From an uncultured Bacilli bacterium (GTDB lineage: Bacteria > Bacillota_I > Bacilli_A > ML615J-28 > CAG-313), in the NCBI GenBank assembly GCA_934133195.1, contig CAKPAZ010000003.1:10682-74681 (forward strand): 64,000 nucleotides of DNA, read 5' to 3'. The translations under genes and the position numbers were made by a program. Every line of letters starts with the position of its first letter. The first letter of the stretch is position 1. Positions 27,897 to 47,969 of the stretch are shown here, piece after piece. The notes beneath the pieces are model-generated. The model did not search any database and was not told where the DNA came from. It saw only the letters and a list, made by a program, of their open reading frames with translations.

Positions 27897-28803
27897 GATT
27901 AATAAAAATTATATAAAAGAAAGATTAAATGAACAATCTGAAAACAAAATTAAAGAAGCATATCAATTAATGCAAACTTATGCCTCAGATAATGAAGAAA
28001 TCATTGAAGCAATTGAAGACATCTACTATGGATACCTAGGATATTGTGAAAGTAACAATATTCCTTATGTAGAAGAAGAGTTTCTTGATGAATTAATTAC
28101 AACTGTAAATGAAATGAATGAAAGATATGCTCAACTTGAAAAAGACTTAGAAAATCCAAGTGATGCGAAAGTACTAAGAGTTAAAGTTTGGTTAAATGAC
28201 TTAAAATCAAAGTTCAATCGTATAATTGATATTCCAGTATGTTACCGTCTTTGTGATCTTGCTTATACTGTCTTTTATTCATTTAAGATGATTGGTTTCA
28301 AACCATTCTCTGTTGAAATTGGTAATGTAACAGCCTACTCTAGAAATGCGGTAGAACCTGAAGAACTTGAAAGAGTACCAATCACTGATGAGGTTCACCT
28401 TGTCCATATAGGATTCCAAGAACATGAACTATTTACTATCTACTATGACATGCATCATAAAGATCCATGGGTAATAAAAGGTGAAGTACTTGGCATTCTA
28501 GATAATGAGCATCAAATCGACTGTCCTCAAGTAGTAAAAGGAAAAGGTAATGGTGTATTTGAAAATAATCAAGATTTCTTTAATTTACTTGTGACTAAAT
28601 CAAAAGAAGAAATCATTGAAGAAAATAACCTAGATGAAAAGACTGCTAAATTACTTGATAAAATTAATATGGAAGGCTTCCAAAGAAGAGATTGTAACGA
28701 AACTTTAAATGAAGTTTTAACATATTATGTAGATCATTATGAAAATGATGTCGATGAAGACGAAGAAACTATTGATGAATTTTATGGTGATATCGAGATT
28801 TAA
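27889..28803 (+). CDS. Acidic hypothetical protein, possible pRiA4b ORF-3-like (PRiA4_ORF3) domain
   Basis: 304-aa ORF with a TTG start overlapping the nfo stop. The central LRVKVWLNDLKSKFNRIIDIPVCYRLCDLAYTVFYSF loosely resembles the PRiA4_ORF3 N-terminal pattern. The C-terminus is very acidic. Confidence 0.55.
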   Translation: MNKINKNYIKERLNEQSENKIKEAYQLMQTYASDNEEIIEAIEDIYYGYLGYCESNNIPYVEEEFLDELITTVNEMNERYAQLEKDLENPSDAKVLRVKVWLNDLKSKFNRIIDIPVCYRLCDLAYTVFYSFKMIGFKPFSVEIGNVTAYSRNAVEPEELERVPITDEVHLVHIGFQEHELFTIYYDMHHKDPWVIKGEVLGILDNEHQIDCPQVVKGKGNGVFENNQDFFNLLVTKSKEEIIEENNLDEKTAKLLDKINMEGFQRRDCNETLNEVLTYYVDHYENDVDEDEETIDEFYGDIEI

Positions 28804-28811
28804 ATAAAATC

Positions 28812-28846
28812 AGAAGTTGTGTTTTATGAACATAACTTCTTTTTTT
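28812..28846 (+). terminator. Rho-independent terminator
   Basis: 10-bp stem AGAAGTTGTG / CATAACTTCT (one G-U pair) followed by T6. Confidence 0.75.
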
Positions 28847-29031
28847 AAAGTTAATTAAATTAAGAAAGTCAAACAAAATGCTAATGTAAATATTTCTTAA
28901 ATTTTCATTAGCAAATATAAAACAAATTATTTCAATTTATGTTATAATTCATTTACATTATTTTTAAAAAAGTATCGAAAAAATAGAGGTTTTTTGACCT
29001 TTGTTTTTTATTGTTGAGGGAGGAAAAAAAG

Positions 29032-31398
29032 ATGTTACAAGTAAAAAAACGTGATGGTAAAGTTGTTGAATTCAACATTACAAAAATTGAAAATGCAATA
29101 AAGAAAGCTTTTGAAGCCGTTAATAAAGCTTACTCTCAAGATATAATTGAACTTCTAGCTTTAAGAGTTACTGCTAACTTTAATGATAAAGTCGTAAATG
29201 GCGTAATCTCTGTTGAAGATATTCAAGACAGCGTAGAAGTTATCCTAATTCAAGCAAGTTATGTAGATGTTGCTAAAGCATATATTTTATATCGTAAACA
29301 ACATGAAAATATGCGAAACATCAAATCTACAATTCTTGACTATAAAGATGCGGTAAATAACTATTTAAAGATTAATGACTGGCGTGTAAAAGAAAACTCA
29401 ACTGTTACATACTCTGTTGGTGGTTTAATTCTTTCTAACTCTGGTGCTATTACAGCTAACTACTGGTTATCAGAAATCTATGATTCAGAAATTGAAGCCG
29501 CTCACAGAAATGCAGATATCCATATTCATGATTTATCAATGTTAACAGGATATTGTGCTGGTTGGTCTATTAAACAATTAATTCAAGAAGGATTAGGTGG
29601 TGTACCTGGTAAGATTACCTCAGCACCTGCTGCTCACCTTTCAACTTTATGTAATCAAATGACTAACTTTTTAGGTATCATGCAAAATGAATGGGCAGGA
29701 GCACAAGCTTTCTCTTCATTTGATACTTATCTTGCACCATTTGTAAAAGTTGATAATCTATCATATAAAGAAGTTAAACAATGCATCCAATCTTTCATTT
29801 ATGGTGTTAACACTCCAAGCCGTTGGGGTACACAAGCTCCATTCACTAATATTACATTAGACTGGACAGTACCAAACGACCTTGCAGAACTAAATGCTAT
29901 TGTTGGTGGTAAAGAACAAAACTTCAAATACAAAGATTGTGTTAATGAAATGGCAATGGTTAATAAAGCTTTCATCGAAATAATGATTGAAGGCGATGCT
30001 AATGGTCGTGGATTCCAATACCCAATTCCTACATACTCAATTACTCGTGATTTCGACTGGTCCCCAACTGAAAACAATAAATTACTATTTGAAATGACTG
30101 CTAAATATGGTACTCCATATTTCTCAAATTATATCAATAGTGATATGGAACCTAGTGATGTACGTAGTATGTGCTGTCGTTTACGTCTTGACTTAAGAGA
30201 ATTAAGAAAGAAATCTGGTGGTTTCTTTGGTAGTGGTGAAAGCACTGGCTCAGTTGGTGTTGTTACTATCAATATGCCACGTATAGCTTACCTTTCTAAG
30301 AATGAAGATGAATTCTTTGAAAGATTAACCAAGATGATGGACATTGCAGCAAGATCATTAAAGATTAAGCGTAATGTAATTACTAAACTTCTTGATGAAG
30401 GTCTATATCCATATACAAAGAGATACCTTGGAACATTTAACAATCACTTCTCAACAATTGGTCTTGTTGGTATGAATGAAGCTTGTCTAAATGCTAACTG
30501 GATTCATGAAGATTTAACTCATAAGAATGCTCAAGAATTCACCAAGAAAGTACTAAACTTCATGCGTGAAAAACTATCTGATTATCAAGAAGAATATGGA
30601 GATTTATATAACCTAGAAGCAACTCCAGCTGAATCTACTTCATATCGTCTTGCTAAACACGATGTAAAACGTTACCCTGATATTATTACAGCATCTAAAG
30701 ATGGTGGAACTCCATACTATACAAATAGTTCTCACCTACCTGTTGGATATACAGAAGATGTCTTCACAGCTCTTGATATCCAAGATGAATTACAAGTTCT
30801 ATACACATCAGGAACTGTATTCCATACTTTCCTTGGCCAAAAACTTCCATCTTGGGAAGCTACAGCTAAACTTGTAAGAAAGATTGCTGAAAACTATCGT
30901 CTTCCTTATTATACAATTTCACCAACTTACTCTGTATGTCCTGTTCATGGATATATCACAGGTGAAGTTTACAAATGTCCTGAATGTGGAAGAAAAACTG
31001 AAGTATACAGTCGTATAACTGGATATTATCGTCCTGTTCAAAACTGGAATGATGGTAAAGCTGAAGAATTCAAACAAAGAAAGACTTATGACATTGATCA
31101 TTCTAGTATTGTTGGTAAAGGTATTCATAAAGAAGAAACTAAACATGAAGAAGTACAACCACTAAATGAAATCTTACTATTTACAACTAAGACTTGTCCA
31201 AACTGTAAGATGGCTAAGATGCTTCTTGATAAAGCTCAAGTAAAATATGTCGCAGTAGATGCTGAAGATAACGCAGAAGCAACAAAACACTACGGCATCA
31301 AAAAAGCTCCAACTCTACTTGTTCCAACATCAAATGGTGTAGAAGTATATGATAATGTAAGTTTAATCAAAGGATATATTGAAAAAAATGTCAAATAG
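29032..31398 (+). CDS. nrdD: Anaerobic (class III) ribonucleoside-triphosphate reductase NrdD with fused C-terminal glutaredoxin/NrdH-like domain
   Basis: RBS GAGGGAGGAAAAAAAGATG. ATP-cone N-terminus (MLQVKKRDGKVVEF), SMCCRLRL finger-loop motif, Zn ribbon CPVHG..CPECG and glycyl-radical motif SRITGYYRPV. A CPNC redoxin domain follows. Confidence 0.9.
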   Translation: MLQVKKRDGKVVEFNITKIENAIKKAFEAVNKAYSQDIIELLALRVTANFNDKVVNGVISVEDIQDSVEVILIQASYVDVAKAYILYRKQHENMRNIKSTILDYKDAVNNYLKINDWRVKENSTVTYSVGGLILSNSGAITANYWLSEIYDSEIEAAHRNADIHIHDLSMLTGYCAGWSIKQLIQEGLGGVPGKITSAPAAHLSTLCNQMTNFLGIMQNEWAGAQAFSSFDTYLAPFVKVDNLSYKEVKQCIQSFIYGVNTPSRWGTQAPFTNITLDWTVPNDLAELNAIVGGKEQNFKYKDCVNEMAMVNKAFIEIMIEGDANGRGFQYPIPTYSITRDFDWSPTENNKLLFEMTAKYGTPYFSNYINSDMEPSDVRSMCCRLRLDLRELRKKSGGFFGSGESTGSVGVVTINMPRIAYLSKNEDEFFERLTKMMDIAARSLKIKRNVITKLLDEGLYPYTKRYLGTFNNHFSTIGLVGMNEACLNANWIHEDLTHKNAQEFTKKVLNFMREKLSDYQEEYGDLYNLEATPAESTSYRLAKHDVKRYPDIITASKDGGTPYYTNSSHLPVGYTEDVFTALDIQDELQVLYTSGTVFHTFLGQKLPSWEATAKLVRKIAENYRLPYYTISPTYSVCPVHGYITGEVYKCPECGRKTEVYSRITGYYRPVQNWNDGKAEEFKQRKTYDIDHSSIVGKGIHKEETKHEEVQPLNEILLFTTKTCPNCKMAKMLLDKAQVKYVAVDAEDNAEATKHYGIKKAPTLLVPTSNGVEVYDNVSLIKGYIEKNVK
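31165..31395 (+). other. Thioredoxin-fold (glutaredoxin/NrdH-like) domain fused to the NrdD C-terminus
   Basis: ILLFTTKTCPNCKMAKMLLDKAQVKYVAVDAEDN..KKAPTLLVP, with CPNC at 31195-31206, downstream of the Gly radical codon (31021-31023). Confidence 0.75.
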
Positions 31399-32299
31399 TA
31401 TTTATGATATTATCATCGTCGGAGCAGGACCTGCAGGAATGACTGCTGCCTTATATGCAAGACGCAGTGATAAGACAGTCTTAATTCTTGAAAAAGAAAA
31501 CTTTGGTGGTCAAATAGCTCTAGCCCCAAAAGTAGAAAACTTCCCTACCCTTGAATCTACAACGGGACAAGAACTAGCTGATAAATTACTTAATCAAATC
31601 ATAGAACTTGGTACAGAATTTGAGCTTGAAGAAGTCTTAAAAATTGAAAAAGAAAATGATATATTTACAGTTACAACAAACTATAATGAATATCAATCAA
31701 GAACAGTAATTATCGCAACTGGTGCAAAACATAAAAAAATGGGACTTGAAAAAGAAGAAGAATTCCTTGGAAAAGGCCTATCTTACTGTGCCGTATGTGA
31801 TGGTGCTTTCTTCAAAAATGAAGAAGTCGCTGTAGTAGGTGATGCTAACTCAGCCTTACAGTATGCCCTTGATTTAAGCACATACTGTCCTAAAGTTTAC
31901 GTATGCACATTATTTGATTGCTTCTTTGGCGATCAAATCTTAGTTGATCGTTTACTCCAAAAAGACAACATTGAAATTATTCACAATATTTCATTGATTG
32001 ACTTAGAAGGAACTGACTCTCTAGAAGGTTTAGTATTTGAAAATACTAAGACAAAAGAACATTTAACAATCCCAGTAAAAGGAGTATTCATTGCGATTGG
32101 TCAAGTACCAAACAATGATATAGTTAAAAACCTTGTTGATATCGACAACCAAGGTTATGTAATTACTGATGAAAACCTTCTAACTAAAACCAAAGGATTA
32201 TTTGTTGCGGGGGACTGCCGTACAAAAAATGTACGTCAAGCAACCACAGCTGTAAGTGATGGAGCAATAGCTGCTATCCAGGCAATAAAATTACTATAA
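31388..32299 (+). CDS. trxB: Thioredoxin reductase-like flavoprotein lacking the canonical NADPH-binding HRRxxxR motif
   Basis: Overlaps the nrdD 3' end (alternative TTG start at 31379). FAD motif IIIVGAGPAGMTAA and redox CAVC (31787-31798) are present. The position aligned with E. coli HLIHRRDGFRAE reads VYVCTLFDCFFGD. Confidence 0.85.
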   Translation: MSNSIYDIIIVGAGPAGMTAALYARRSDKTVLILEKENFGGQIALAPKVENFPTLESTTGQELADKLLNQIIELGTEFELEEVLKIEKENDIFTVTTNYNEYQSRTVIIATGAKHKKMGLEKEEEFLGKGLSYCAVCDGAFFKNEEVAVVGDANSALQYALDLSTYCPKVYVCTLFDCFFGDQILVDRLLQKDNIEIIHNISLIDLEGTDSLEGLVFENTKTKEHLTIPVKGVFIAIGQVPNNDIVKNLVDIDNQGYVITDENLLTKTKGLFVAGDCRTKNVRQATTAVSDGAIAAIQAIKLL

Positions 32300-32307
32300 A
32301 AACAAAC

Positions 32308-32350
32308 CCCTAAGCAAATTAGAAACGATACTTTGCTTAGGGATTTTTTA
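32308..32350 (+). terminator. Rho-independent terminator
   Basis: Perfect 11-bp stem CCCTAAGCAAA / TTTGCTTAGGG followed by a T-run. Confidence 0.8.
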
Positions 32351-32386
32351 AAATAACGAGAAGAAAACAAGAAAGAGGATAAATTT

Positions 32387-32938
32387 ATGGTTATTGAAAA
32401 AGTAGTTGATAAAGATGAAATGATAAGAGATATAAAATTATTTAAAAGATATTGTCTTTTACCATTTAAAAGGGGATTATTAGTATTTCCAATTAGTTTA
32501 GTTGTAGCATTTCTTCTTCTTCTTTTTGGATATATCATTGACTCTAGTTCACCTATAGATTATATTGTTATTGGAATAGCATTACTATATTTTGTTCTTG
32601 CGGCAGCTCGTGTTCTAATAAAATCCAATAAAGAAATTAAGAAACTAATAAATGATAGAACGAAAATCTACAATACCAGAGATTATATTATTAGAAAATT
32701 TACTTTTAATAATAATCAATTAGTTATTGAAGGAAACGATGGAACTAATCAAGTAACTGAGACATTTTCATTGGATGATCTTTATGTAGCATGGATTGAT
32801 AAAAAAAGAACAGCTTTTATTCTTCAATTTAAAGCAGGAAAAAACAAAAAGATAGTTGCAGCTCATTCAGATAAAATAGATGAATTAGAAGCATATTTTA
32901 TAAATAATAATATAAGGTATCATATAGTAAAAAAATAA
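32387..32938 (+). CDS. YcxB-like membrane protein (paralogue 1)
   Basis: 183-aa ORF with RBS AAGAGGATAAATTTATG. Two central TM helices are followed by a soluble C-terminal domain. Tandem paralogue of 32994..33554. Confidence 0.6.
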   Translation: MVIEKVVDKDEMIRDIKLFKRYCLLPFKRGLLVFPISLVVAFLLLLFGYIIDSSSPIDYIVIGIALLYFVLAAARVLIKSNKEIKKLINDRTKIYNTRDYIIRKFTFNNNQLVIEGNDGTNQVTETFSLDDLYVAWIDKKRTAFILQFKAGKNKKIVAAHSDKIDELEAYFINNNIRYHIVKK

Positions 32939-32993
32939 TAATATTTATAATATAATAACCATAAAGTTTAATACAAAAAGGAGAAAATATTTT

Positions 32994-33554
32994 ATGATTA
33001 TTGAAAAAGTAGTTGATAAAAATGAAATGATAAGAGACTTAAAATTATTTAAGAAATATTATCTTTTACCATTTAAAACTCAATCATTGATATTTCTATT
33101 TCTTATTATTTATGGTGCCATTAATTTTCTTTTTGCATATTTATTTTCAATTGAATCAAAGTTTGTAGATATAAGTATGATTATTGTTGCACTAGCAGTA
33201 CTATATTATTTAATTATAGCGGCTCGTACTTTGATAAAAACCAATAAAGATATTAAGATGCTAATAAATGATAGAACGAAAATCTACGATACTAGAGATT
33301 ATATTATTAGAAGATTTACCTTTACTGCTGATGAATTAATTATTGAAAAAGATGATGGAACTAATCAAGTAACTGATAAGTTTTTATTAGATGATCTTTA
33401 TATAGTATGGATTGATAAAAAAAGAAAAGCTTTTATCATGCAATTTAAAACTGGTAAAAATAAAAGGATACTAGCAGTTTATTCAGATAAAATAGATGAA
33501 TTAGAAACATATTTCATAAATAATAATATAAGGTATCATATAGTAAAAAGATAA
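32994..33554 (+). CDS. YcxB-like membrane protein (paralogue 2)
   Basis: 186-aa ORF with RBS AAAGGAGAAAATATTTTATG. N- and C-terminal thirds are near-identical to the upstream gene (MIIEKVVDKNEMIRD..., ...YFINNNIRYHIVK). Confidence 0.6.
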   Translation: MIIEKVVDKNEMIRDLKLFKKYYLLPFKTQSLIFLFLIIYGAINFLFAYLFSIESKFVDISMIIVALAVLYYLIIAARTLIKTNKDIKMLINDRTKIYDTRDYIIRRFTFTADELIIEKDDGTNQVTDKFLLDDLYIVWIDKKRKAFIMQFKTGKNKRILAVYSDKIDELETYFINNNIRYHIVKR

Positions 33555-33583
33555 TGATACTTAAATATAATCACTAATAAAAT

Positions 33584-33634
33584 AAAAAGCTCTTAAGTTA
33601 ACAAGTTCATGACTTGAAAACTTAAGGCTTTTTT
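33584..33634 (+). terminator. Terminator hairpin, copy A of a 51-bp direct repeat
   Basis: AAAAAGCTCTTAAGTTAACAAGTTCATGACTTGAAAACTTAAGGCTTTTTT. Outer stem CTTAAGTT/AACTTAAG, inner stem CAAGT/ACTTG, flanked by an A-run and a T-run. Confidence 0.8.
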
Positions 33635-33672
33635 ATATTGTAAAATTATATTGTAAAATTATATTGATAAAA
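33633..33672. repeat. 13-bp tandem direct repeat x3 upstream of the giant gene
   Basis: TTATATTGTAAAA (33633-33645), TTATATTGTAAAA (33646-33658), TTATATTGATAAAA (33659-33672). Confidence 0.85.
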
Positions 33673-33684
33673 ATTTATCAATAT
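33661..33684. promoter_or_regulatory. Perfect 11-2-11 palindrome (operator-like) abutting the -35 of the giant gene promoter
   Basis: ATATTGATAAA AA TTTATCAATAT; the arms are exact reverse complements. Confidence 0.45.
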
Positions 33685-33687
33685 AGT

Positions 33688-33716
33688 TTTACAGAATAAT
33701 TAATTTGTGGTAAAAT
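33688..33716 (+). promoter_or_regulatory. Candidate promoter of the 33760 gene
   Basis: TTTACA (33688-33693), 17-nt spacer, TGgTAAAAT extended -10 (33708-33716). RBS GGAGGAAATATG lies at 33749-33762. Confidence 0.5.
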
Positions 33717-33759
33717 ATAATGGTAGAGAGATAGAGGGATATAAATTAGAGGAGGAAAT

Positions 33760-36700
33760 ATGAAGAATAAAATTTTAAGAATCTTTACAGCTGTTTTATT
33801 GTTAACTACTATATTGGTTGTTACCCTTTCATCTTACAAGAAAAAAGATGATTATGAAGATAATAAACCAACAATACAAGAAGATTTAAATAAGTATGCA
33901 GGTAGCTATGACATACATAAAATTGTATTACAAAATACAAATGAAGTAACGGCGAAAAAATTAGCTGAAAGATTTAATGCTAAATTGAGAATTACTTCAG
34001 ATGGAAGTTATGCTACACTAACTCTTCCTGATGATATAACAATAAACGATATTGTTAAAAGTAATAAAAATAGAGATATTTTAAGCTTAATTGCGCCTGA
34101 CTATAAGGCTACTCTATCAGAACTAACTGAAGAAAGAACAACTAACTTTCCTACTGTTTCTGTAGAGGATGAATATTATGATTTACAAACATACTTAAAA
34201 TATTTAAATTTACAAGATGTTTGGAAAAATTATAAGGGCAGTGGAAAAACTATTGCTGTTATAGATACAGGTATAGATACAGACCACCCTGAATTTGCAG
34301 GCCGAATAAGCGAATATTCATATAATGCTACATTAGATAAGATAGTTAAAGACTGTGTCAATGAAGATGGCAGTTATGACTGGAGCATTATAGAAGATGA
34401 ACAAGGACATGGTACCGCTGTATCAGGTGTAATAGCTGCATCAATGAACAATGAAATTGGTATTGCTGGTATTGCTCCGGAAGCTAAAATTCTAACTATT
34501 AAAGCTGAATGTGATAAAAATGGTAATTTCAAGAACACATCAGACTTAGTATTTGGTTTATATTATGCAATTGAACAAAATGTTGATGTTGTAAACATGA
34601 GTTTTGGAAGTCCAGTCAATGTATTTTCAACTCCTGCTAAACTTGCTGTTGATAGTGACATAGTTTGTATTGCCGCTGCAGGAAATGAATCAACTGCAAA
34701 ACTTACATATCCAGCAGCAGATGAAAACGTCATAGGTGTTGGTGCTTTAGCTGATAATTCTTGGGAACTTGCATCTTACTCTAACTATGGTGATAATACT
34801 GATGTTGTTGCTCCAGGAACTGTTTATACAACATATCTAAATGGCACTTACAAAACAATGTCAGGAACAAGTTTTTCAGCTCCTATTGTTTCATCTTTAA
34901 TTGCTTTATTCTATAATCATTACATGACAACTGATTATGCAAAAGAAGTATTATATGCCGCAAGTTATGATTTAGAAAGTAAGGGAAAAGACTTTTACTT
35001 TGGATATGGTGCTGTTGATGCAAGTGCTTTAATTTTAGAAGAAAAAGGAACAGTCACATTTAACTATTTAACTGATGAAATTAATCCAACAACACAAATA
35101 TTTATCAAAAATCATCCATTACAAAATATTCCTCAACCGGAAAGATTATATTCAGTTTTTGATGGTTGGTATTATGATATTAATTGTAAAGATGAAATTG
35201 ACCTATATGTTGATGCATGGACAAGCGATTTAACTCTATATTGTAGTTGGGGTAATGAAGATGATGTTCTTCCTTATACATATACTACTTTAGATGATAA
35301 TTCTATTGAAATAACATCATACATTGGTAAGAGAAAATATATCACAATTCCTGAATATATTGATAACAAAAAAGTAACAAGCATTGGAAGATCAGCTTTC
35401 GCAAACAATACTAAATTAGTAAACGTAAATCTACCTAGTGGTTTAAAATCAATTAAAGATTACGCTTTTGATGGATGTATTAATATCAAGAATTTTGAAA
35501 TTCCATCAAGTGTTATAAGTATTGGAATTAATGCTTTTAGAAATAATATAAGTCTTTATAATATTAATTTCTTAAGTGATAGTAAACTTGAAGTAATTGA
35601 TGAATATGCATTTATAAATTGCTCATCTCTTACTAGATTTGATATTCCTAAAAATGTAAAATATAATGAAGAAAATAATTACTTCACAGGTAGTGCCTTT
35701 GTTGGATGTACTAATCTAAGACAAGTTAACGCAAGTAGAGATAGTAAATATTTAACATCAATTAATGGTGTTTTATATAACAAAGCATCTTCAACAATCA
35801 TTTTATACCCTGCTGGTTTATCAAATGAAACATATGATTTACCAACATCAGTAACTAAACTTGGTAAGTACTCATTCGCATTTTCTAATATTGATACAAT
35901 TGATTTAAAGAATGTAACAGCGATTAATTCAAATGCATTTGAATCATCTCGAATAAGAAAAATAACCTTAAGTGATAAAGTAACAACCCTTGGAAGTTTT
36001 GCTTTTATAAACTCACAAATTAACGATATTACTTTAGGACATGGCCTAAAGGCTTTAGAATCTGGTACTTTCAGACAATGTAATAACTTATATTCAATAA
36101 CTATACCAAATTCAATAGTTTATATTAGAGGTCCTATTGGAGCCTTTTTCGAAAGTTCACTTACAGACATTACTTTTGAAGAAGAATCTAAACTTTTATT
36201 AATCGATGATTATACATTTGCTAATTCTAATTTACATAAAATTGAAATTCCATCTTCAGTTGTAAAAATTGGTATGTCAGCTTTTTATGGATGTTCAAAT
36301 CTAACCGAAGTAATAATTAATAATGATTCAGCTTTGTCAGTAATTGATGAAAATGCATTTAGTTATACATCAATAAAAACTATCAACTTAACTAGTCATC
36401 TTTATACAATAGGTGCAGGTGCATTCTTTGCGACAAAACTAGAAGAAGTAACAATACCTAGTAGTGTTAATCAAATATATGGAAGTTCATTTGCTGGAAA
36501 CATATACTTAAAAAACATCTTTGTATCACCAGATAACAAGATGTTAACATCCATTGATGGAGTGGTTTACACTAAAGATTATTCAACCCTTTTCGCATAT
36601 CCAGCTGGTAAAGATTTATCATCATATACCATTGATGGAAGAGTAACTGAAATAGGTGAATATGCTTTCTATGGTGCATGCAATTTAACTAGTATTGATT

Positions 36701-39700
36701 TTCCTGAAAATCTAATAATTATAAATGATTATGCTTTTTCTTCATTATCGAATATTTCCTATTATAATTTACCTTCTAGTTTAACTTCAATTGGTGAATA
36801 TGCATTCAGTGACAATGAAAAGTTACAAGGAACTACAATCCCAGGCAATGTTGAAACTATAGGAAGATATGCCTTTAAAGGAAATTATAATTGTATAAAT
36901 ATTAATATTACAACACCATCTAAACTTGATAGATTACCATATGGAGTTTTCGCGTATACAGGAATCTATAGTTTTAGAATTCCTTCAAGTATTTCAAGTA
37001 TTTCTCAAGATGTCTTTTTAGGATGTAATAATCTAGATTCCATCACCTTTGAAGAAAATAGTAAATTACAAGCAATTAGTGCTTACACATTCTCTGGATG
37101 TGATCAGTTAAGAGTAATTACTTTTGAAAATGGTTCTAACCTAGAAACCATTGAAGCCCATGCTTTTGAAGGCTTGAAAAACTTAACAACTATTGATTTT
37201 GGTGATGCTAGTGTAAAAACAATTAGTAACTATGCTTTTAGATTTTGTACTTCATTACAAAATATTACGCTTCCTGAAACATTAACATTTATTGGACGTT
37301 ATGCCTTTTATGGTTGTAAATCCTTAACTAAATTAACTATCCCTTCATCAGTTGATTATATCGGAAGATATGCATTTAATCTTGCTTCATCATTAGATAT
37401 TTACTTTGAAAGTGATACCTTACCTTCTAATATCCAAGAATACTGGGATAAAGGTATTAATAGTTATCACATAGGAGTTAAAGAAATTAAACAAGATGAA
37501 AATTTTGAATATGCTATATTAAGAAATAATACTATATCAATTATTAAATACCTTGGAAATGAAAAAACTCTTGATTTAACAAACTTATCAATTGGAACTG
37601 TTTCATCTATTGGTGGTCATGCTTTCATGAATTCAAGTGTTGAAAGTATAGTTTTACCAGAAACATTAATAGAAATTCAATATTATGCCTTCAAAAATTC
37701 ACGTATTAAAACATTAATCATTCCTGATAGCGTTATAAGAATTGGCAATAATGCCTTTGAAGCATCAAGTATTGAAACAATTACTATTAATGAAACAAGT
37801 AATTTAAAATATATCGATCAATATGCCTTTAGTTTATGTACTTCATTAAAGAGTATATATTTACCAAGTTCTTTAATTAAGCTTGGAACTGGAGCTTTTG
37901 AAAAGAGTTCACTAGAAACTGTAAACTTTGATGAAAATATTACTATAAATGAAATCCCTGAGGATTGTTTCTTAGGAACAAAATTGGTAAATGTTGTTTT
38001 ACCTAATACTGTTACATTAATTAATAACAGTGCGTTTAGAGAAGTAGAAACATTATTAAATATAACATTTGGAACATCTAAACTTTCAATTTTATCAAAT
38101 GCCTTTTATAATTCTGGCTTACAAGAAGTATATCTTCCTGAAAACATTGAATATGTTGGTGAATATAGTTTTGTAGGTTTAAAGAATTTAAAAGAATTTA
38201 AAGTAAGTGAAAATAATAAATATTATCAACAAATTGATGGTGCGTTATATACAAAAGATGGTAAAAAAATAATAGCCTACCCAGCTGGAAAAACGGGTAG
38301 CATTACGCTTCCAACGTCTATTGAAACAATTGGATTTGGAGCTTTTGAAAACTCTAGTTTAACAAACATAGAGTTTGGTGCAGAATCTAATATTTTAAAT
38401 ATTGGATATAGAGCGTTCTTTAACGCTAAAAATTTAGTAGAAATAACAATACCTGATAGTGTTATTTCCATAGATTATTATGCTTTTGCTAATTGTGATA
38501 GATTAGAAAGTGTAAATATCAGTGAAAACTCAAAATTAGCAGGAATTTATGAAGGTGCATTCTACGGATGTATTAACTTAAAATACATCACTTTACCTGA
38601 TACATTATATGTAATTAGTGATTACTGTTTCAGTGGATGCTCATCACTTACTCGTATACCTGTTAATGAAACATCTAGCTTAATTGATATAGCTAGTTAT
38701 GCCTTTGCTTACTCAGGATTAACCGAAGTAAATATTCCACTTTCAATAGTTAATCTTGGTGCATATAGTTTCAAAGGAATAAAAGCAACAACAATAGTAA
38801 TTCCTTCTGAAAATCAAGAAATTCTCAAGATTGGTATTGGTGCCTTTGAAGAATGCGAATACCTAGAAGAAATTACATTACCATTTATTGGTGGTAGCTT
38901 TGAAGATGAAACTAATTATTGGGTAGGATATGTATTTGGTGCTGGAACATATGAAGCTAACGAAGATTATCTACCTGATTTATTAAAAAAGATTACTATC
39001 GATGAAGGTATAAAAGTAGTAAAAAACAATTCGTTTTATAATATTAAAAAATTAGAAGAAATTGATCTTCCTTATAGTTTGGAATTAATAAATGCTTATG
39101 CTTTCTATCTTTGTGAAAGTAGACATCAATTTAAAAGTTCGATATCATTGTCAGGTGATTTTCAAGATTTAAATATGAATTTGGGATCAAATCTATATGG
39201 AACATTGAATATAACGTCATTTGTCACTAGCCTAACTGTAGAAAAAATACAATTAGATTGTTATGATTTAACAAGTGTATCATTACCTGCAACAAAGAGA
39301 TTTCCATATTTTAAAAATTGTAACCGATTACAAGAAATTATTATTCCCGAAGGAACTGAAATTATAGCAGATGACACATGCAATAGTAGCATAATAAAAG
39401 AAATTACATTACCTAGTTCTTTAAAATATATATATGATGAAGCTTTTGGAGGTTCGATATATATTTATAGAATTATCAATAATAGTTCATTAGACATTAA
39501 ACTTGGAGATAGATCATGTGGATGGGCAACTACCTACGCAAATGAATTAATTGATAAAGATGGTAACAAAATAGTATCAAATGATGACTATAGTATAATT
39601 GATTATAATAACTTTAGATTTACATATAAAGATAATAAATATACTTTAGTAGACTATTTAGGATCTGAAGTAGATGTAGTATTACCTGAATTTATATATG

Positions 39701-42700
39701 GAACTAGTTACGAAATAAATTTACAATACAATAGAAAACTAGAAAAAGTTGAAATTCCTAATACTTTTACAACTATTAATGAATACGCATTTTATGATTG
39801 TTCTTCGTTAAAAACCGTTATTATTCCAGATTCAATAATCAAAATAGCATATTCTGCGTTTAGTAGCTGTGAATTATTAACAAATGTAAAACTTCCTAAT
39901 TTTCTTGAAACTATTGAATCTTTTTCTTTTTCTGGTTGCGAATCTATAACATCAATTGTAATACCAAATTCTGTTAGTCGTATAGGTAGATATGCCTTTA
40001 GAGATACATCAATTAAAGAAATAACAATTCCAAATTCAGTAAAAGAATTAGATGGTTTTCAGGATTGTAAATCGCTAGAAACAGTTAATTTACCTGATAC
40101 AGATATTATAATTTATGATGAGGCATTTAATAATTGTGAAAATTTGAAATATATTAAACTTGGCGCTAGAACTAAAATTAATGGAAGTATTATCAATAGT
40201 AATGATTGTATACTTGATTTTAGTAATAGTGAAATTTACAATTATGATAATGGAATAACATATGATGAAACATTCAAAAAAATTATATATGTCGATAAAA
40301 GAATTAAAGGTGAAGTAACTATTAAAGATGGAGTTGAATCGATTAGTAATGCTTTTTCTTATTGTAAAGATGTGACATCAATAATATTACCGGATTCAAT
40401 CACATCAATTTCAGAAAGTGCTTTTTCATATTGTACATCATTAACAACAGTTAAAATGTCAAGTAAAGTCACTAATATAGGTTCATACGCCTTTGAAAAT
40501 TGTACATCACTTGTTGATATTGAATTGCCAAATACAATTGAGACGATTCATAGTTACGCCTTTAAAGATTGTACATCATTAATAACTTTCAAAATTCCAA
40601 ATTTAGTTACAAGTATAGAAGATTCTACTTTTTATGGATGTACATCATTAATTAATATTGAAATTTCCGAAACAGTTACGAAAATAGGGCAATCTGCATT
40701 TAATCAGTGTTCTTCATTACAAAGTATCGCAATACCAACATCAGTTACAAGTATAAATGTTTTGGCATTTGCTGGTTGCAAATCATTAGTAGATATTGAA
40801 ATTCCTGATTCAGTTACAGAATTAGGATGGGGAATCTTTTTAGGATGTAATTCACTAATCTCAGTAAAATTACCTAATTCAATGGATAAAATTGGAGAAT
40901 TCTTTTTTGAAGAATGTATATCTTTAGAAACAGTGGATATTCCAGCAGCAATCACAAGCATAGAACGTTTTGCATTTAATTGTTGTATATCATTAAAAAA
41001 TATTATTTTACCAGATACAGTTAAGAGTATTGAAGATAGTGCATTTACTGATTGTATTTCGTTAAAAAATATTAAAATGTCTACAAATATTACTAATATA
41101 GGAACTTTTGCATTTAATGGCTGTGTTTCATTAGTAGACATACAAATACCAGCTGGTATTACCAGAATAGAAAAATCAAGTTTTGATTCTTGTAGTTCAT
41201 TAAAATCAATTACTTTGCCTGATACAATTAATGAGATTAGAGATTCAGCATTTAAAAATTGTACATCATTATCAAGTATAACAATTTCAAATAATATAAA
41301 TTATATTTCAAGTAATGCATTTTATGGATGTCAATTATTATTCACAGTTATCAATAATTCTGACTTAAAAGTTGGTTTCCAAAATTCAAGTGATGGTATT
41401 ATTTTTGAATATGCTAAGAAAATAATTGAAAAGGATGGAACTATAAGATATTATAACGATGAAGAACTTGGTGATTTAAAAGATACAGAGTATATTGTTA
41501 AAAATAATTTTAAATTTTCATATAATGGACTATTCTACATTTTGATAGAATATGAAGGAAATGAAACAAGTATAGTATTTCCTGAAAATATAAATGGTGA
41601 GAATTACTTCATAAATTTTTCTTCTGATTCAGTTAAAGAAATTAAATTTCCAGACAATTTAATTGAATTAAAAAGTTATTATGTGATTAACGAACAAAGG
41701 TATTCGTTTACTAATAAAATTTATGGTAATAAACTCGAAACAATTGATTTTAATAATTTAACGAAAATAACACATAATTTATTAGAAGATAATAGAAGTT
41801 TGGAAAATGTTATATGTAATAATGTTATTCGTATTGAGTATCAAGCTTTTGAATGGTGTCTTAATTTAAAAAGTGTTAAATTTTTAGAAACGCTTGAGGA
41901 AATAGAATCTAGAGCATTTTATAATTGTACATCGTTAACAACTATAACTATACCAGAATCAGTATCATATTTAGGTGGTGATTCATTTGCCCATTGTTCA
42001 AATTTAATTGATGTAATTCTTCCTAAAAATATTAAATATTTTGCATCTAGTACATTTGATGACACTCCATATATGGAAAATACTAAAGTTATAGATGGCG
42101 TTAAGCATTTAGGTAATTATATTATTGATATTGATAAAAATAAAACACAATTTTCATATGATCCGGGTTATCAAATTACAAATAATGCCTTGAATGGTTG
42201 TACTAGAATAAAAGATTTTATATTAAATAAAACTGATAGTCAATTTATGGAAAGTGGGTTAAGATATTTAACAAATTTAGAAAAATTATATATTAATATA
42301 AATTTAGAAAATCCTATTAGAAACTATCTATATTCTTTCCCTGAAACTTTTAAAACTATTATTATTTCAAGTAGCGTTACAGAAGTAGTAGATAATCAAT
42401 TTAATGGATTTAATGGTGTAATTTACGTTGATCAATATAAAGACAATGTAATGTGGGATTATGAACATCCAAATTGGAATGGAAATAATAAAGTTTATTA
42501 TAAAGGTGAATGGATTAAAGCTTCATTTTATAATAATGATGATACAGAAATTACAACAGATTTCTATTTAGTTAATCAAATAATTAGACAGCCAATAATG
42601 AAAGATTATGTTAAAGATGGAATCAATTACAAATTTATTGGTTGGGATACAGATGGTGATAATAAAGTTAATTCTTTGCCAGCAAATTCTAAAACTAATG

Positions 42701-45700
42701 TAACTGCTAAAGCAATATATGAAGAACAAATAAAGAACTACACTGTCACATTTATGGATAAAGATGGAGTAACAATTCTTGAACAATTAAGTTTACCTTA
42801 TGGTTCTACATTTACTTTAATAACACCAGCTGAAAAACAAGGTTATACTTTTGTTGGTTGGAGAGATTATCCAAAAGATTTAGTTGTAACTGAAGATTTA
42901 ATAATATATTCTGTATGGACTCATAATGGAAATCATGAATATACAATTGATGAAGTAATTGATCCAACATGTACAGAGGCTGGATATACAAAACATATTT
43001 GTTCAATATGTAATGAATATTACATATCTGATTATGTAGATAAACTTGGTCATAACTTTACTCAAGAGGACATAGTAGATCCAACATGTACAGAAGATGG
43101 TTATACAAAACATACATGTTCAGTATGTGACTATACATATTCTGATAATTATGTTAATAAACTTGGTCATACATTTGGTGATTACATAATTGATGAAGAT
43201 CCTACATGTGAAAACTCAGGTTTAAAACATAAAGAATGTCATACATGTCAACATAAAGAAGAAGAAACAATTGCCCCATTAGGTCATAATTATGAAGAAA
43301 CTGATATAGTTGAATCAACATGTACCCATGGTGGCTCAATAACATATACATGTACAAGATGTGAAGATGTTATAACATCATACACAGATTTAAAAGATCA
43401 TGAATATGTTAAAAAATATGTATCATTAACATGGTTAGAAAGACTATTAAAATTCTTAATTAAGATATTTTATGGAATAGAAAATGATAATGCATACTAT
43501 TTTGAATGTGTTAATTGTAAACACATAATGACAGCGAATGAAAATCAAGCAAATTCATCTATTCAAGGCACTTGTTCACATGAAACCTGTGAATGGGTAG
43601 TAGTATTTACAAGTTGTGATGATAATGGATTAAAGACATATAAATGTACAAATTGTGATGAAGTACTTGAAATTGAATTATTAGATCCAATAGGTCATGA
43701 TTTAGTACATCATGAAAAGTTAGATGCTACTTGTGAAGAAGCAGGACATGAAGCATATGATACATGTACAAGATGTGATTATACAACATTCAAAGAAATC
43801 CAAGCAGCAGGTCATACTTCAAGTGATTGGATTATTGACAAAAAATCTAACTGTACTGAAGATGGTTCAAAACATAAAGAATGTACAGTTTGTCATAAAG
43901 TACTTAAAACAGAAGTTATAGATAAACTAGGCCATAATCTTGTTCATCATGAAAAACTAAATCCTACTTGTGAAGAAGCAGGACATGAAGCATATGATAC
44001 ATGTACAAGATGTGACTACACAACATTTAAAGAGATTCCTTCAACAGGTCATACAACGAGTGATTGGATCATTGATAAAGAATCTAACTGTACAGAAGAT
44101 GGAACTAAACATAAAGAATGTACAGTATGTCATAAAGTTTTAGAAACAGAAGTTATAGAAAAACTTGGACACGATTTAGTACATCACGAAAAGTTAGATC
44201 CTACTTGTGAAGAAGTAGGCCATGAAGCATATGATACATGTACAAGATGTGACTACACAACATTCAAAGAAATCCCATCCACAGGTCATACTTCAAGTGA
44301 TTGGATTATTGACAAAGAATCAAATTGTACAGAAGATGGCTCAAAACATAAAGAATGTACAGTTTGTCATAAGATTTTAGAAACAGAAGTTATAGAAAAA
44401 CTAGGTCATAATCTTGTTCATCATGAAAAGTTAGATCCCACTTGTGAAGAAGCAGGACATGAAGCATATGACACATGTACAAGATGTGACTACACAACCT
44501 TCAAAGAAATCCCAGCAACCGGACATAGATCAAGTGATTGGATTATTGACAAAGAATCAAATTGTACAGAAGATGGCTCAAAACATAAAGAATGTACAGT
44601 CTGTCATAAAGTACTTGAAACAGAAACAATAGATATGTTAGGCCATGATCTTGTTCACCATGAAAAGTTAGATTCTACTTGTGAAGAAGTTGGTCATGAA
44701 GAGTATGATACTTGTACAAGATGTGATTATACAACCTTCAAAGAAATCCCAGCAACTGGTCACACATCAAGTGAATGGATTATTGATAAAGAATCAAATT
44801 GTACAGAAGATGGCTCAAAACATAAAGAATGTACAGTATGTCATAAAGTTTTAGAGACAGAAGTTATTGATAAACTTGGACACGATTTAGTACACCATGA
44901 AAAGTTAGATCCAACATGTGAAGAGAATGGCCATGAAGCATATGATACTTGTACAAGATGTGATTATACAACCTTCAAAGAAATTCCTTCAACTGGTCAT
45001 ACTTCAAGTGATTGGATTATAGATCAAAAATCAAATTGTACTGAAAATGGTTCAAAACACAAAGAATGTACAGTATGTCATAAAGTACTTGAAACAGAAA
45101 TCATAAGTAAATTAGGACATGATTTAGTACATCATGAAAAACAAGATCCTACTTGTGAAGAAGCAGGCCATGAAGCATATGATACATGTACAAGATGTGA
45201 TTATACAACCTTCAAAGAAATATCTGCAACTGGTCATACATCAAGTGAATGGATTATTGACAAAGAATCTAACTGTACAGAAGATGGATCAAAACACAAA
45301 GAATGTACAGTATGTCATAAAGTACTTGAAACAGAAGTTATTGATAAACTTGGTCATAATCTTGTTCATCATGAAAAGTTAGATCCTACTTGTGAAGAAG
45401 CAGGCCATGAAGCATATGATACTTGTACAAGATGTGATTATACAACCTTCAAAGAAATCCCAGCAACCGGACATACTTCAAGTGATTGGATTATCGATCA
45501 AGATTCTAACTGTACAGAAACTGGTTCAAAACATAAAGAATGTACAGTATGTCATAAAGCACTTGAAACAGAAGTTATAGAAAAACTAGGACATGATTTA
45601 GTACATCATGAAAAACTAGATCCAACTTGTGAAGAAGTAGGCCATGAAGCATACGATACATGTACAAGATGTGATTATACAACTTTCATAGAAATTCCTT

Positions 45701-46170: not shown

Positions 46171-46223
46171 AAAAAAGCCCTTAAGTTAACAAGTTCATGA
46201 CTTGAAAACTTAAGGGTTTTTTT
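46171..46223. terminator. Bidirectional terminator, copy B of the 51-bp direct repeat
   Basis: AAAAAGCCCTTAAGTTAACAAGTTCATGACTTGAAAACTTAAGGGTTTTTTT is identical to copy A at 49 of 51 aligned positions. It serves the giant gene (+) and nrdG (-). Confidence 0.85.
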
Positions 46224-46917
46224 AATAACCTCTTAGATATACATTTGTTATAAATTGTTCTAAGTATTCTTTATATTCGATAGCAGTTTCTTTTTTTACT
46301 TCATGAAAGCCTTTAGAAAGAGAAGAATCTCTTTCAACAAAATGTTGTAGATAGTAAGTTTTGGTTCCGTTAATTAAATCTTTGATTTCTTTAATACTAT
46401 CAAAATCATGAAATTCTTTAACAAGGGTAGTTCTAAATTCATGATGAATATTAGATGTTTCTAAAATGTTAATGGTTTCTTTGATTTTTTCTAGAGGAAC
46501 TTTATTTATTCCTGCTACCATACTATAGTTAGAAGTACCACTCTTGATGTCCATCGCAATGTAATCAACTAAGTGATTGTCGATTAATTCTTTGACCATT
46601 TTAGGATTGGTACCATTGGTATCAAGTTTTATGACAAAACCTAAATCTTTAATTTTCTTTATATAATAAGGAAGTGATGCCATTAGGGTTGGTTCCCCAC
46701 CAGTGATGCAGACGGCTTCAATTATTTTTTTTCTACTAGTAAGGTAATCAATGATTTCGTTAAAATCAAGGGGTTTTTCGACATCATTATTTACAAGAGG
46801 GCCATTGTGACACCATGGACATCTGAAGTTGCAACCACTAGTAAATAGTGTACATGTAACATATCCTTCAAAATCTACAAGCGATATTTTTTCAATTCCA
46901 ACAAATCCATCAATCAT
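46222..46917 (-). CDS. nrdG: Anaerobic ribonucleotide reductase activating protein (radical SAM)
   Basis: GCNFRCPWCHN CxxxCxxC motif and CITGGEPT; 231 aa. ATGA overlap with ispG upstream. Confidence 0.85.
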   Translation of the reverse strand: MIDGFVGIEKISLVDFEGYVTCTLFTSGCNFRCPWCHNGPLVNNDVEKPLDFNEIIDYLTSRKKIIEAVCITGGEPTLMASLPYYIKKIKDLGFVIKLDTNGTNPKMVKELIDNHLVDYIAMDIKSGTSNYSMVAGINKVPLEKIKETINILETSNIHHEFRTTLVKEFHDFDSIKEIKDLINGTKTYYLQHFVERDSSLSKGFHEVKKETAIEYKEYLEQFITNVYLRGY

Positions 46918-47969
46918 TTTGTATTTATCATTTTCAAGATTTCTTCCTTTAAACAGTCGACAATCTTATCTTCAGGAATCTTCTTAATGATTTCTCCTTT
47001 CTTGAATAATACGCCACATCCATTTCCTCCTGCAATTCCAAGATCAGCTTCTCTTGCTTCCCCAGGACCATTGACTACACATCCCATAATGGCGATGGTT
47101 AAGTTTTTGTTAATTGATTCACAAAAACTTTCAATTTCTTTTACGACGGGTTCCATATTATAGTTGGTTCTACCACAAGTAGGACAAACAATCAATCTTG
47201 GTTTTTGGTAAAGATGGCACATGGAAAGAATTTCTTTACATACAGGAATTTCATTTAAAGGTGATCCATGTAAAGATACTCTAATAGTGTTACCAATACC
47301 TTCAAAAAGAAGTGTACCAAGAACATAACTAGAAGCAATGGTTCCACTAAATGTGGTTCCCGATTCGGTAAGTCCAATATGGATAGGATATGGGTAACGG
47401 GCTGCTAAAGCTCTATTTACTTCAATAGTTGATTCAATGTCAGTGGCTTTAATGGATAAAACTAAATCTTTAAAATCAAAACTCTCCATAAGTTTTACTG
47501 CTCGGTCCATACTTTCTAAAAGTGCAAGTGTGGTAACATGATGATATTTTTCAAGTAAATCTTTTTCAAGAGATCCACTATTAATTCCAATACGAATAGG
47601 AACATGATACTCTTTACATTTATCTACTATTTGTTTAACTTTATCATCTGAACCGATGTTTCCAGGATTAATTCTAATTTTATCAGCTCCACTTGTTATA
47701 GCAAGAATTGCGAGTTTATAATCAAAGTGGATGTCCGCAACAATTGGTATTCTAACTTGTTTTTTTATTTCTTTGATCGCAAGCGCATCTTCCTCATCAA
47801 GGACTGCTACTCTAACGATTTCACATCCTAGAAGTGTTAAATCATTAATTTGTTTAACCGTCTTTTCAATGTCTTTAGTTTTGGTGTTAGTCATTGATTG
47901 AATGACAACTTTATTAGATCCTCCAATTATGACATTTCCAACTTTTACTTTTATGGTATCAGATCTCAT
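46914..47969 (-). CDS. ispG: 4-hydroxy-3-methylbut-2-en-1-yl diphosphate synthase (IspG/GcpE)
   Basis: Typical IspG sequence (VIQSMTNT, VRVAV, IPIVADIHFDYKLA, RINPGNIG, C-terminal CPTCGRT...GCVVNGPGE). The TGtTATAAT promoter complement lies at 47994-48002. Confidence 0.9.
   Translation of the reverse strand: MRSDTIKVKVGNVIIGGSNKVVIQSMTNTKTKDIEKTVKQINDLTLLGCEIVRVAVLDEEDALAIKEIKKQVRIPIVADIHFDYKLAILAITSGADKIRINPGNIGSDDKVKQIVDKCKEYHVPIRIGINSGSLEKDLLEKYHHVTTLALLESMDRAVKLMESFDFKDLVLSIKATDIESTIEVNRALAARYPYPIHIGLTESGTTFSGTIASSYVLGTLLFEGIGNTIRVSLHGSPLNEIPVCKEILSMCHLYQKPRLIVCPTCGRTNYNMEPVVKEIESFCESINKNLTIAIMGCVVNGPGEAREADLGIAGGNGCGVLFKKGEIIKKIPEDKIVDCLKEEILKMINTK

Follow-up and report, generated by a model that had tools for sequence, protein, structure and literature searches.

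We have analyzed how a class III ribonucleotide reductase (RNR) might be supplied with electrons at a locus in DNA from an uncultured Bacilli bacterium (contig CAKPAZ010000003.1; the whole stretch of 64,000 nucleotides is called the window here). Two genes lie in succession on the forward strand. The first, nrdD (29032–31398, +), encodes a class III RNR of 788 amino acids (aa) with an N-terminal ATP-cone and a C-terminal redoxin domain; it starts at ATG 29032, with GAGGGAGG eight bases ahead, and ends at the TAG stop codon 31396–31398. The second (31388–32299, +), which we call trxR′, encodes a 303-aa homologue of the low-Mr thioredoxin reductases (TrxRs) with a remodelled pyridine-nucleotide site (TIGR01292, PF07992). 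Two start codons come into question for it, TTG 31379 and the more likely ATG 31388 (AAGGA at 31370–31374). From the ATG the two genes overlap by 11 nt, and the nrdD stop codon is overlapped from either start, as a first-pass annotation made from the letters alone had claimed. The coordinates that it gave for features of nrdD and trxR′ all agree with the table of open reading frames (ORFs) and with direct reading of the sequence.

The product of nrdD is a class III RNR. It scores above the cut-offs for PF13597 (642.8 bits, cut-off 26.2), which places the NRDD catalytic domain at residues 121–686, and for NF006126 (1141.9 bits, cut-off 548) and TIGR02487 (526.7 bits, cut-off 326.35). It has the glycyl-radical motif RITGY, with Gly664 encoded at 31021–31023 (+), and the genome also encodes NrdG. 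Residues 3–92 form the ATP-cone, an allosteric on/off domain (29038–29307, +; PF03477, 82.5 bits). Conservation was assessed in 44 fusion proteins from diverse taxa, comprising that of the window (29032–31395) and those of 43 other loci. Gly664 is invariant in this set, as are C636, C649 and C652, and H639 is conserved in at least 90%. By analogy with the family, C636-x2-H639 and C649-x2-C652 of the glycyl-radical domain (30937–30987, +) are probably metal-binding knuckles.

The first-pass annotation had NrdD continue, about 45 residues past the glycine, into an 80-residue thioredoxin-fold domain with a CPNC motif. The fused domain is present, but its first strand begins 50 residues past Gly664 and its length is 75 residues (residues 714–788; 31171–31395, +). 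The motif C722-P-N-C725 is encoded at 31195–31206, and C722, P723, C725 and the cis-Pro760 are invariant in the 44 fusion proteins. A partial match to the Glutaredoxin/Thioredoxin Pfam families covers residues 714–767. The AlphaFold2 (AF2) model of the domain (pLDDT 96) has a β-α-β-α-β-β-α thioredoxin fold, for which Foldseek returned thioredoxins (TM ~0.75), one of them the thioredoxin chain of a Bacillus subtilis RNR complex. A profile built from 26 diverse redoxin domains is nearest to the PDO/‘glutaredoxin-like’ proteins of Aquifex and Pyrococcus, to the MJ0307-type small thioredoxin and to NrdH, all of which we take to be TrxR substrates. Identity as a glutathione-dependent glutaredoxin (Grx) or NrdH was rejected. 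The match to PF00462 is only partial (profile positions 1–39 of 60), and the scores lie far below the equivalog cut-offs of TIGR02181 (27, cut-off 90), TIGR02194 NrdH (22, cut-off 85.75) and TIGR02196 YruB (34, cut-off 88.55). Judged from its modelled structure and its conservation, the fused domain is best described as a generic minimal thioredoxin fold that is real and under constraint.

The redoxin domain is connected by a linker of about 25 residues (approximately residues 689–713; 31096–31170, +) that varies in sequence and length in the alignment. It has no predicted secondary structure, and in the full-length AF2 model pLDDT falls below 50 at residues 699–707. It thus looks like a flexible tether, and might be able to reach the active site.

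Which reductant does the active site of this enzyme call for? Residues were compared by phmmer alignment with the enzyme of Thermotoga maritima, to which similarity is only moderate (1.5e-39), and with the formate-type enzyme of Prevotella copri. Cys175, the βA or ‘bottom-face’ cysteine (29554–29556, +), aligns with T. maritima Cys125. The finger loop M380-C381-C382-R383 (30169–30180, +; within SMCCRL at 30166–30183, with the C381 and C382 codons at 30172–30177) aligns with S-C329-C330-R, giving a double-cysteine loop in which the Met is retained. Glu529 in NLEATPAE (30616–30618, +) aligns with Glu495 in NIEQVPAE. All three elements are invariant (n = 44). The P. copri enzyme has an MGCR finger loop and Leu at the position of Glu529, and the window enzyme is evidently not of the formate type, its cysteines and Glu529 matching T. 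maritima NrdD2.

In the scheme given in PMC4493059, NrdD2 has a third active-site Cys and a Glu, NrdD3 has the Cys without the Glu, and NrdD1 has neither. Since the third Cys and Glu529 are both present, the window enzyme is by this residue definition NrdD2, the thioredoxin type. NrdD1 (formate-type) membership is contradicted by MCCR and Glu529 in place of MGCR without Glu, and NrdD3 (methanogen type; QCCR/A) by the presence of both Glu529 and Met380. Finger loops are found in single-Cys (MGCR) and double-Cys (MCCR/SCCR) forms, and the Met opening the motif is kept in 83% of the double-Cys enzymes (PMC9669993). According to Burnim et al. (PMC9669993) a retained Met leaves either reductant possible, formate included. 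The ‘thioredoxin-only’ subclade of Burnim et al. 2022 has the Glu and lacks the Met, and the window enzyme, with Met380, lies outside it. The first-pass annotation had taken the adjacent cysteines to mark a redoxin-dependent subclass. The NrdD2 residues bear this out, but with the Met of MCCR retained the exclusion of formate was overstated.

On its sequence, TrxR′ belongs to the low-Mr thioredoxin reductase superfamily. It matches PF07992 (145.6 bits) and has the marks of the superfamily in GAGPAG (residues 12–17), CAVC (134–137; 31787–31798) and AGDC (274–277). The disulfide center C134-A-V-C137 is accompanied by the thioredoxin-docking residues G128-K-G and F141-F142 (31769–31813, +); such GR/KG and FF residues are the core of the thioredoxin interface (PMC5627308). 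However, its score against TIGR01292, the TrxB equivalog, is 333.9 bits, just below the cut-off of 343.45, and it has GDANSA and TLFDCFF instead of GxGxxA and HRRxxxR, so that membership of this NADPH-TrxR family was rejected.

Aligned with solved NADPH-TrxRs, VVGDANSA falls on VVGGGDSA, and VCTLFDCFFGD on VVHRRDQLRAQ. Thus G151-D152-A-N-S-A (31838–31855, +) replaces GGGxxA, and T174-L175-F176-D-C-F-F180-G-D (31907–31933, +) replaces H-R-R-D-x-x-R. Comparison of 65 members of the TrxR′ clade with 75 HRR-type sequences revealed ten separating positions. The six strongest (G152D, D159Y, H174T, R175L, R176F and R180F) all lie within the pyridine-nucleotide site, and the other four are weaker (80–83%). 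Position 152 is Asp in 100% of the clade and Gly in 100% of the NADPH types, and T, L, F and F occupy the H/R/R/R positions in 85–98% of the 65 sequences. The FAD motifs, CAVC and GKG/FF are all kept. The FAD, CAVC and GDANSA motifs had been correctly located by the first-pass annotation, but loss of GxGxxA is not general, since many relatives have GDGN[ST]A and so retain it formally; what is invariant in the clade is the change of Gly to Asp152 together with the loss of H/R/R/R.

Decay or pseudogenization of the NADPH site was considered and rejected, the replacement residues being 85–100% conserved across the 65 sequences. Because 65 independent operon-linked sequences share the pattern with little or no variation, chance and decay are excluded as its source. 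TrxR′ looks like a working disulfide reductase in which only the donor site has been rebuilt and then frozen. The 2′-phosphate-binding basic residues have been replaced by conserved T/L/F/F and there is an invariant Asp in addition, and for these reasons TrxR′ most likely does not use NADPH.

The motifs of TrxR′ had been read as the pattern of the ferredoxin- or flavodoxin-dependent flavin thioredoxin reductases (FFTRs) of clostridia, and this assignment fails. The best solved matches to TrxR′ are NADPH-TrxRs (up to 3e-65). Values of 1e-31 to 1e-35 were obtained for the clostridial FFTRs (6gna, 6gnc and 6gnd) together with the enzyme of Gloeobacter (5nii), the FFTRs themselves lying at 1e-33 to 1e-35. 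Nor is TLFDxFF the replacement motif of the FFTR/DTR-like TrxB that the genome also encodes. We calculated a FastTree phylogeny of 226 TrxR sequences, rooted on a single outgroup, the FFTR/DTR-like TrxB of the same genome. The operon-linked window-type TrxRs group in one clade (73 rows; SH-like support 97), and the ordinary NADPH enzymes fall in a different one (143 rows; support 100). The signature GD[AG]N[ST]A...TLFDxFF is strictly conserved in the TrxR′ clade, and a subset among 150 representatives (50%-identity clusters) has the replacement motifs of the window rather than random decay. TrxR′ does lack the NADPH-binding motifs, the feature by which the NADPH-independent type is recognized in PMC10880999.

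The genome encodes a second TrxR homologue of 290 aa, on contig C2 (72907–73779, minus strand; L003:1450–2322). Among solved structures it matches 5nii (1e-43) and 6gna (2e-35) best; in place of HRR it has ILTNGETPNF, which resembles the ‘TQ/NGK’ motif reported for Desulfovibrio vulgaris TRi, and it is convergent with a canonical WCGPC thioredoxin gene (C2:72566–72883). On these sequence features the FFTR/TRi-like gene of the organism is this one and not trxR′. No canonical NADPH-TrxR was found in the genomes of the same genus, and the whole thiol system of the organism may therefore be NADPH-independent.

The association of the two genes extends well beyond the window. When 399 species genomes from the GTDB class of the window were scanned, window-type TrxRs turned up in several families. 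Thirty loci were fetched, and in every one of them trxR′ lies directly 3′ of a redoxin-fused nrdD whose C-terminus has CPNC or CPKC about 60 residues past the glycine; nrdG is convergent in 22. The three-gene set of nrdD, trxR′ and nrdG is conserved in the loci examined. A further search of GTDB (one genome per species), for which the query was an alignment of the glycyl-radical tail and redoxin domain, gave at least 598 confirmed fusion matches, and the best 80 all span the whole fusion. SMCCRL (SICCRL in L070) and NLEATPAE occur in all loci whose contig reaches those motifs.

The gene after nrdD was classified in the best 80 loci, with merged counts from motif scripts. It encodes a window-type TrxR in 43, a canonical GGGxxA/HRRxxxR enzyme in 9, a GGGNSA/QNLxxLTGE type in 13, another TrxR variant in 4 and a TrxR-like protein cut by the contig end in 1. 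TrxR is absent after nrdD in 9, and the remaining locus, whose contig ends 451 nt past nrdD, could not be assessed. Thus a TrxR gene directly follows the fused nrdD in about 70 of the best 80 loci. Conversely, all 65 distinct window-type (type-A) TrxRs recovered sit directly after a redoxin-fused nrdD, and the frames often overlap or abut. The slot has, from the sequences, been filled from at least two TrxR clades. The best comparative evidence that the slot encodes the reductase of the tethered domain is its occupation by unmistakable NADPH-TrxRs in other lineages.

By their record titles the fusions come from uncultured Bacilli, Erysipelotrichaceae, Christensenellales, Oscillospiraceae, Lachnospiraceae and Spirochaetes; the cultured carriers are Pseudoflavonifractor phocaeensis, Butyrivibrio sp. 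INlla16 and Acutalibacteraceae SVS042. Titles of metagenome-assembled genomes (MAGs) that name Bacteroidaceae, Alistipes or Muribaculaceae are probably due to errors in binning. Over its full length the fusion protein is 72–87% identical between records labelled Bacilli, Clostridia (Christensenellales, Oscillospiraceae and Lachnospiraceae) and Spirochaetes. This is unusually high for hosts so distant, and suggests that the gene has spread horizontally, that the protein is very strongly constrained, or both.

Other variants of the module were encountered. The type-C TrxRs, mostly of Clostridia, have an intact GGGNSA, with QNLxxLTGE or QDLPxxTGE at the 2′-phosphate site (L073, L084, L087, L089, L090, L095, L098, L105–L107, L109, L113 and L114). 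The solved protein 7jyp has this QNLxxLT pattern; a literature search on that PDB entry returned nothing relevant and no paper on its cofactor. In a Spirochaetaceae MAG (L099:3535–4314) the gene after nrdD–redoxin encodes a 259-aa protein that is not a TrxR and has a flavodoxin-like N-terminus and a CxxCxxCxxxCP iron–sulfur motif; from its sequence it is possibly an alternative electron-input module. Deep-branching TrxRs with GDGN[ST]A and TL[FG]DxFF are encoded on metagenomic contigs (L116:134–1012 and L117:4001–4915; also L118 and L119) among phage-like neighbors (GIY-YIG and NUMOD3 endonucleases, dUTPase, PhoH, ClpP and a RecD2-like helicase), and within the stretch seen they are not beside nrdD. 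The TLFD-type TrxR may thus also be carried by phages of gut anaerobes.

In the window itself, nrdD is preceded by a terminator-like hairpin (28812–28840, +; a 13-pair stem followed by a T run, identified by consensus match only) that would close the upstream transcription unit, leaving nrdD–trxR′ with its own 5′ region at 28841–29031. An Rfam scan of 28000–34000 found no RNA elements. Promoter-like matches were no more frequent than in shuffled sequence, and no promoter is named. The radical-SAM activase gene nrdG (46222–46917, −; NrdG2 model TIGR02495, 211 bits, cut-off 131) is convergent with trxR′. The two are directly adjacent in most relatives, including four other species of the same genus (L008–L011), but are parted in the window by 32387–46164, apparently inserted into the module in this lineage only. 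YcxB-like genes follow trxR′ both in the window, as two tandem paralogues of 183 and 186 aa, and in a same-genus genome (L007, from G205). A gene for a 4134-aa surface protein stands before nrdG in the window; the 1.5-kb flank of L007 ends before that point. Two genes beyond nrdG, past an ispG-like gene (46914–47969), a 186-aa ORF (48033–48593, −) matches the N-terminal third of ISNCY/IS481-type transposases (positions 2–115 of 368) and is probably a truncated transposase remnant.

The assembly from which the window comes is 1.17 Mb in length and 64% complete, and 12 near-complete carrier genomes were therefore added, making 13 in all. One of these (G205) is from the same genus, is 96% complete, and has a TrxR′ 99% identical to that of the window. 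No class I or class II RNR was found in any of the 13 genomes. A pyruvate formate-lyase (PFL)-like enzyme is present in only one and missing from the other 12, and a NifJ-type pyruvate:ferredoxin oxidoreductase (PFOR; ~1190 aa) is present in all 12 near-complete genomes. Stand-alone flavodoxin is essentially absent among the 13, with no match in the genomes of the same genus. Taken together, NrdD is the only source of deoxynucleotides in these organisms, and pyruvate is oxidized via ferredoxin rather than to formate. The genome of the window encodes a 55-aa 2x[4Fe-4S] ferredoxin (C1:25333–25500) and an NfnAB-like pair (C12:6060–8308, minus strand), the latter consisting of a 462-aa GltD-like protein with Fe–S motifs and a 285-aa FNR-like subunit. 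In this reduced genome the pair and the ferredoxin, judged from their sequences, are likely to be the hub through which ferredoxin, NADH and NADPH are connected.

The best overall explanation of these observations, to which we assign a probability of roughly 0.6, is a self-contained thiol relay serving an NrdD2-like class III RNR, with a TrxR′ that is likely not to use NADPH. NrdG would install the glycyl radical on Gly664. At each turnover Cys175 would then be oxidized to a disulfide with one of the finger-loop cysteines (C381 or C382), Glu529 serving as the base. We infer that the tethered CPNC domain swings on its ~25-residue linker to reduce the active-site disulfide, and that the translationally coupled TrxR′ re-reduces it through the CAVC/FAD center. 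TrxR′ would in turn be reduced by something other than NADPH, most plausibly here by reduced 2x[4Fe-4S] ferredoxin made by PFOR. We consider it probable that the relay operates. Ferredoxin is a tentative choice of donor that we would not back at even odds, suggested by the metabolic context and by the precedents of FFTR and NrdD3; the remaining odds are divided between a pyridine nucleotide, discussed below, and something else. There is close to an even chance that proteins with GD[AG]N[ST]A/TLFDxFF constitute a further, independently evolved family of pyridine-nucleotide-independent TrxRs, dedicated to a tethered RNR and using a low-potential donor.

A number of observations weigh against this relay or parts of it. 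About 40% of the clade still have a formal GxGxxA in the form GDGN[ST]A, and the NAD(P)H domain is complete, so that a pyridine nucleotide bound in a non-standard manner is conceivable. The rebuilt patch has hydrophobic residues and an Asp where basic ones would be expected if an acidic ferredoxin docked there. No ferredoxin or flavodoxin gene is operon-linked in 109 of 110 loci, the exception being L099, a locus without a TrxR; with this single linked case, gene linkage gives no clue to the donor. In two genomes of 96–97% completeness (G352 and G054) TrxR′ is the sole TrxR homologue and therefore not purely ‘private’ to the RNR. The finger-loop Met380 is compatible with the use of formate according to Burnim et al. 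(PMC9669993). An FNT-family (formate/nitrite-type) transporter is encoded in 8 of 13 carriers, this genome included, so that imported formate is a possible reductant. Lastly, the full-length AF2 model is only moderately confident (mean pLDDT 76) and gives nothing on docking.

The strongest alternative retains the relay as described, with TrxR′ fed by a pyridine nucleotide, most likely NADH or else NADPH bound in an unusual manner. The nucleotide-binding domain is full-length, the nearest solved relatives are NADPH-TrxRs, and the first motif is GDGN[ST]A in many clade members. Moreover, the HRR-type TrxRs found in the same operon slot in 9 other lineages make pyridine nucleotide a proven donor for the module. 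Yet NADH-specific relatives such as AhpF have an acidic residue at the end of strand β2, and TrxR′ has none. The replacement of H, R, R and R by T, L, F and F and the invariant Asp beside the first Gly of the pyrophosphate-binding turn also speak against pyridine nucleotides, and the strict conservation of the hydrophobic replacements suggests that the site has acquired a new ligand or partner, not that its specificity has relaxed. In favor of a pyridine nucleotide, an NADH-preferring TrxR has been reported for T. maritima, as cited in PMC5627308. On balance we think a donor of this kind unlikely.

Still less probable is the suggestion that the redoxin and TrxR′ serve to keep cysteines of NrdD, in the knuckles or the finger loop, reduced for radical installation by NrdG, formate being the turnover reductant. 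Such a role has a precedent in Padovani 2001, as related in PMC4390871. The attachment of the redoxin ~25 residues past the glycyl-radical domain, close to C636/H639/C649/C652, is in its favor, as are the Met of MCCR and the FNT-family transporters. Both residues that define NrdD2 are present, however, most carriers lack a PFL-like enzyme, and with NrdD as the sole RNR a need for imported formate would leave DNA synthesis at the mercy of the surroundings. Activation and turnover roles can in any case both hold.

The idea that TrxR′ is the general thioredoxin reductase of the cell, placed in its slot for co-regulation only while any thiol system reduces the fused domain, draws on its being the only TrxR-family gene in G352 and G054, on the lack of a canonical NADPH-TrxR in the same genus and on the conserved GKG/FF docking residues, but is equally improbable given the strict placement of all 65 type-A sequences and given that the FFTR/DTR-like TrxB beside the WCGPC thioredoxin looks like the housekeeping pair of this genome; general and dedicated roles can coexist. 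Neither of these last two alternatives excludes the relay.

Class III RNRs are textbook formate-dependent enzymes, and to our knowledge only two other reductant routes have been shown for the class, each in one or two organisms. The window would present a third arrangement, a tethered redoxin with an operon-encoded TrxR, as the sole route to DNA precursors in its organism. Hundreds of species-level genomes of Firmicutes and Spirochaetes from gut and rumen have the module, a few cultured strains among them. Its three flavors, with a canonical NADPH-TrxR, the TLFD type of the window or the QNLxxLT type, amount to a natural experiment on the change of electron donor in TrxRs. If the TLFD clade is pyridine-nucleotide-independent, it would be a new TrxR family with its physiological substrate known from the start, which the TRi and Thermoplasma enzymes lack. 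If the donor is a low-potential carrier, be it ferredoxin or another protein or flavin-type carrier, all deoxynucleotide synthesis would be wired to the ferredoxin pool instead of to NADPH or formate in a sizeable fraction of the gut Bacilli, the Christensenellales and their relatives, and in some of their phages. As a lineage-restricted essential function, the module might also be worth considering as a selective target among gut anaerobes.

A literature search found no description of the nrdD–redoxin/trxR′ module, and according to a 2015 review class III enzymes had no known external or C-terminal cysteine pair. The components and their chemistry are familiar from other systems, whereas the covalent tether, the reductase dedicated to it and the donor site, rebuilt and then conserved, go beyond what has been characterized. 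The closest characterized system is the NrdD2 of Neisseria bacilliformis and T. maritima (PDB 4u3e and 4coi), for which NADPH, TrxR and a free thioredoxin supply the electrons (Wei et al. 2014, described in PMC4493059, PMC9669993 and PMC4390871). The window enzyme shares with it the βA Cys, the double-Cys finger loop, the active-site Glu and a host without formate production, and in both cases electrons are expected by disulfide exchange from a TrxR-recycled thioredoxin-fold protein. Unlike T. maritima NrdD2, the window enzyme has its redoxin tethered at the C-terminus in place of a free thioredoxin, MCCR in place of SCCR in the finger loop, and a TrxR that is operon-encoded and lacks the NADPH 2′-phosphate site.

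The closest precedent for the fused redoxin is Grx-NrdB of Facklamia ignava (Rozman Grinberg et al. 2018, PMC6187632). In that case as well an RNR subunit carries a fused redoxin domain, and a role as the enzyme's own reductant was shown for the F. ignava protein. That enzyme, however, is of class I and carries an N-terminal, glutathione-dependent Grx on the radical subunit, whereas the window enzyme is of class III, with a C-terminal domain that is not a typical Grx and a dedicated TrxR. One grx::nrdD fusion is listed, but not studied, in the supplementary survey of the same work (PMC6187632).

For a ferredoxin-fed class III RNR the closest functional precedent is NrdD3 of Methanosarcina barkeri. 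In work of Wei and colleagues from 2015, this enzyme is said to function with an NrdH-like redoxin and a ferredoxin:disulfide reductase. As in the window, a small redoxin is encoded within the operon of the class III RNR. The electrons of NrdD3 come from ferredoxin, not NADPH. It differs from the window enzyme in lacking the Glu, in having QCCR/A and a separate redoxin, and in using an Fe–S reductase unrelated to the flavin TrxRs. The reductant row of Table 1 in PMC9176816 reads ‘Glutaredoxin-like NrdH (NrdD3)’.

The known pyridine-nucleotide-independent TrxRs comprise FFTR/DTR (6gna–6gnd and 5nii), D. vulgaris TRi (PMC5627308) and Methanocaldococcus jannaschii DFTR. TrxR′ resembles them in its low-Mr fold, FAD, CxxC and absence of HRRxxxR, and the donor to FFTR is ferredoxin. 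Its motif GD[AG]N[ST]A/TLFDxFF is different, TRi having TQ/NGK, and at ~303 aa it has the size of an NADPH-TrxR, whereas solved FFTR chains have 288–294 aa. In best match, length, FAD motifs, CxxC and thioredoxin-docking residues TrxR′ is instead like canonical TrxB (TIGR01292; 5uwy, 4gcm and 1tde), which itself follows the same nrdD–redoxin gene in 9 other lineages. Where TrxR′ parts from canonical TrxB is in the NADPH site, in which six of the ten separating positions lie, changed and fixed.

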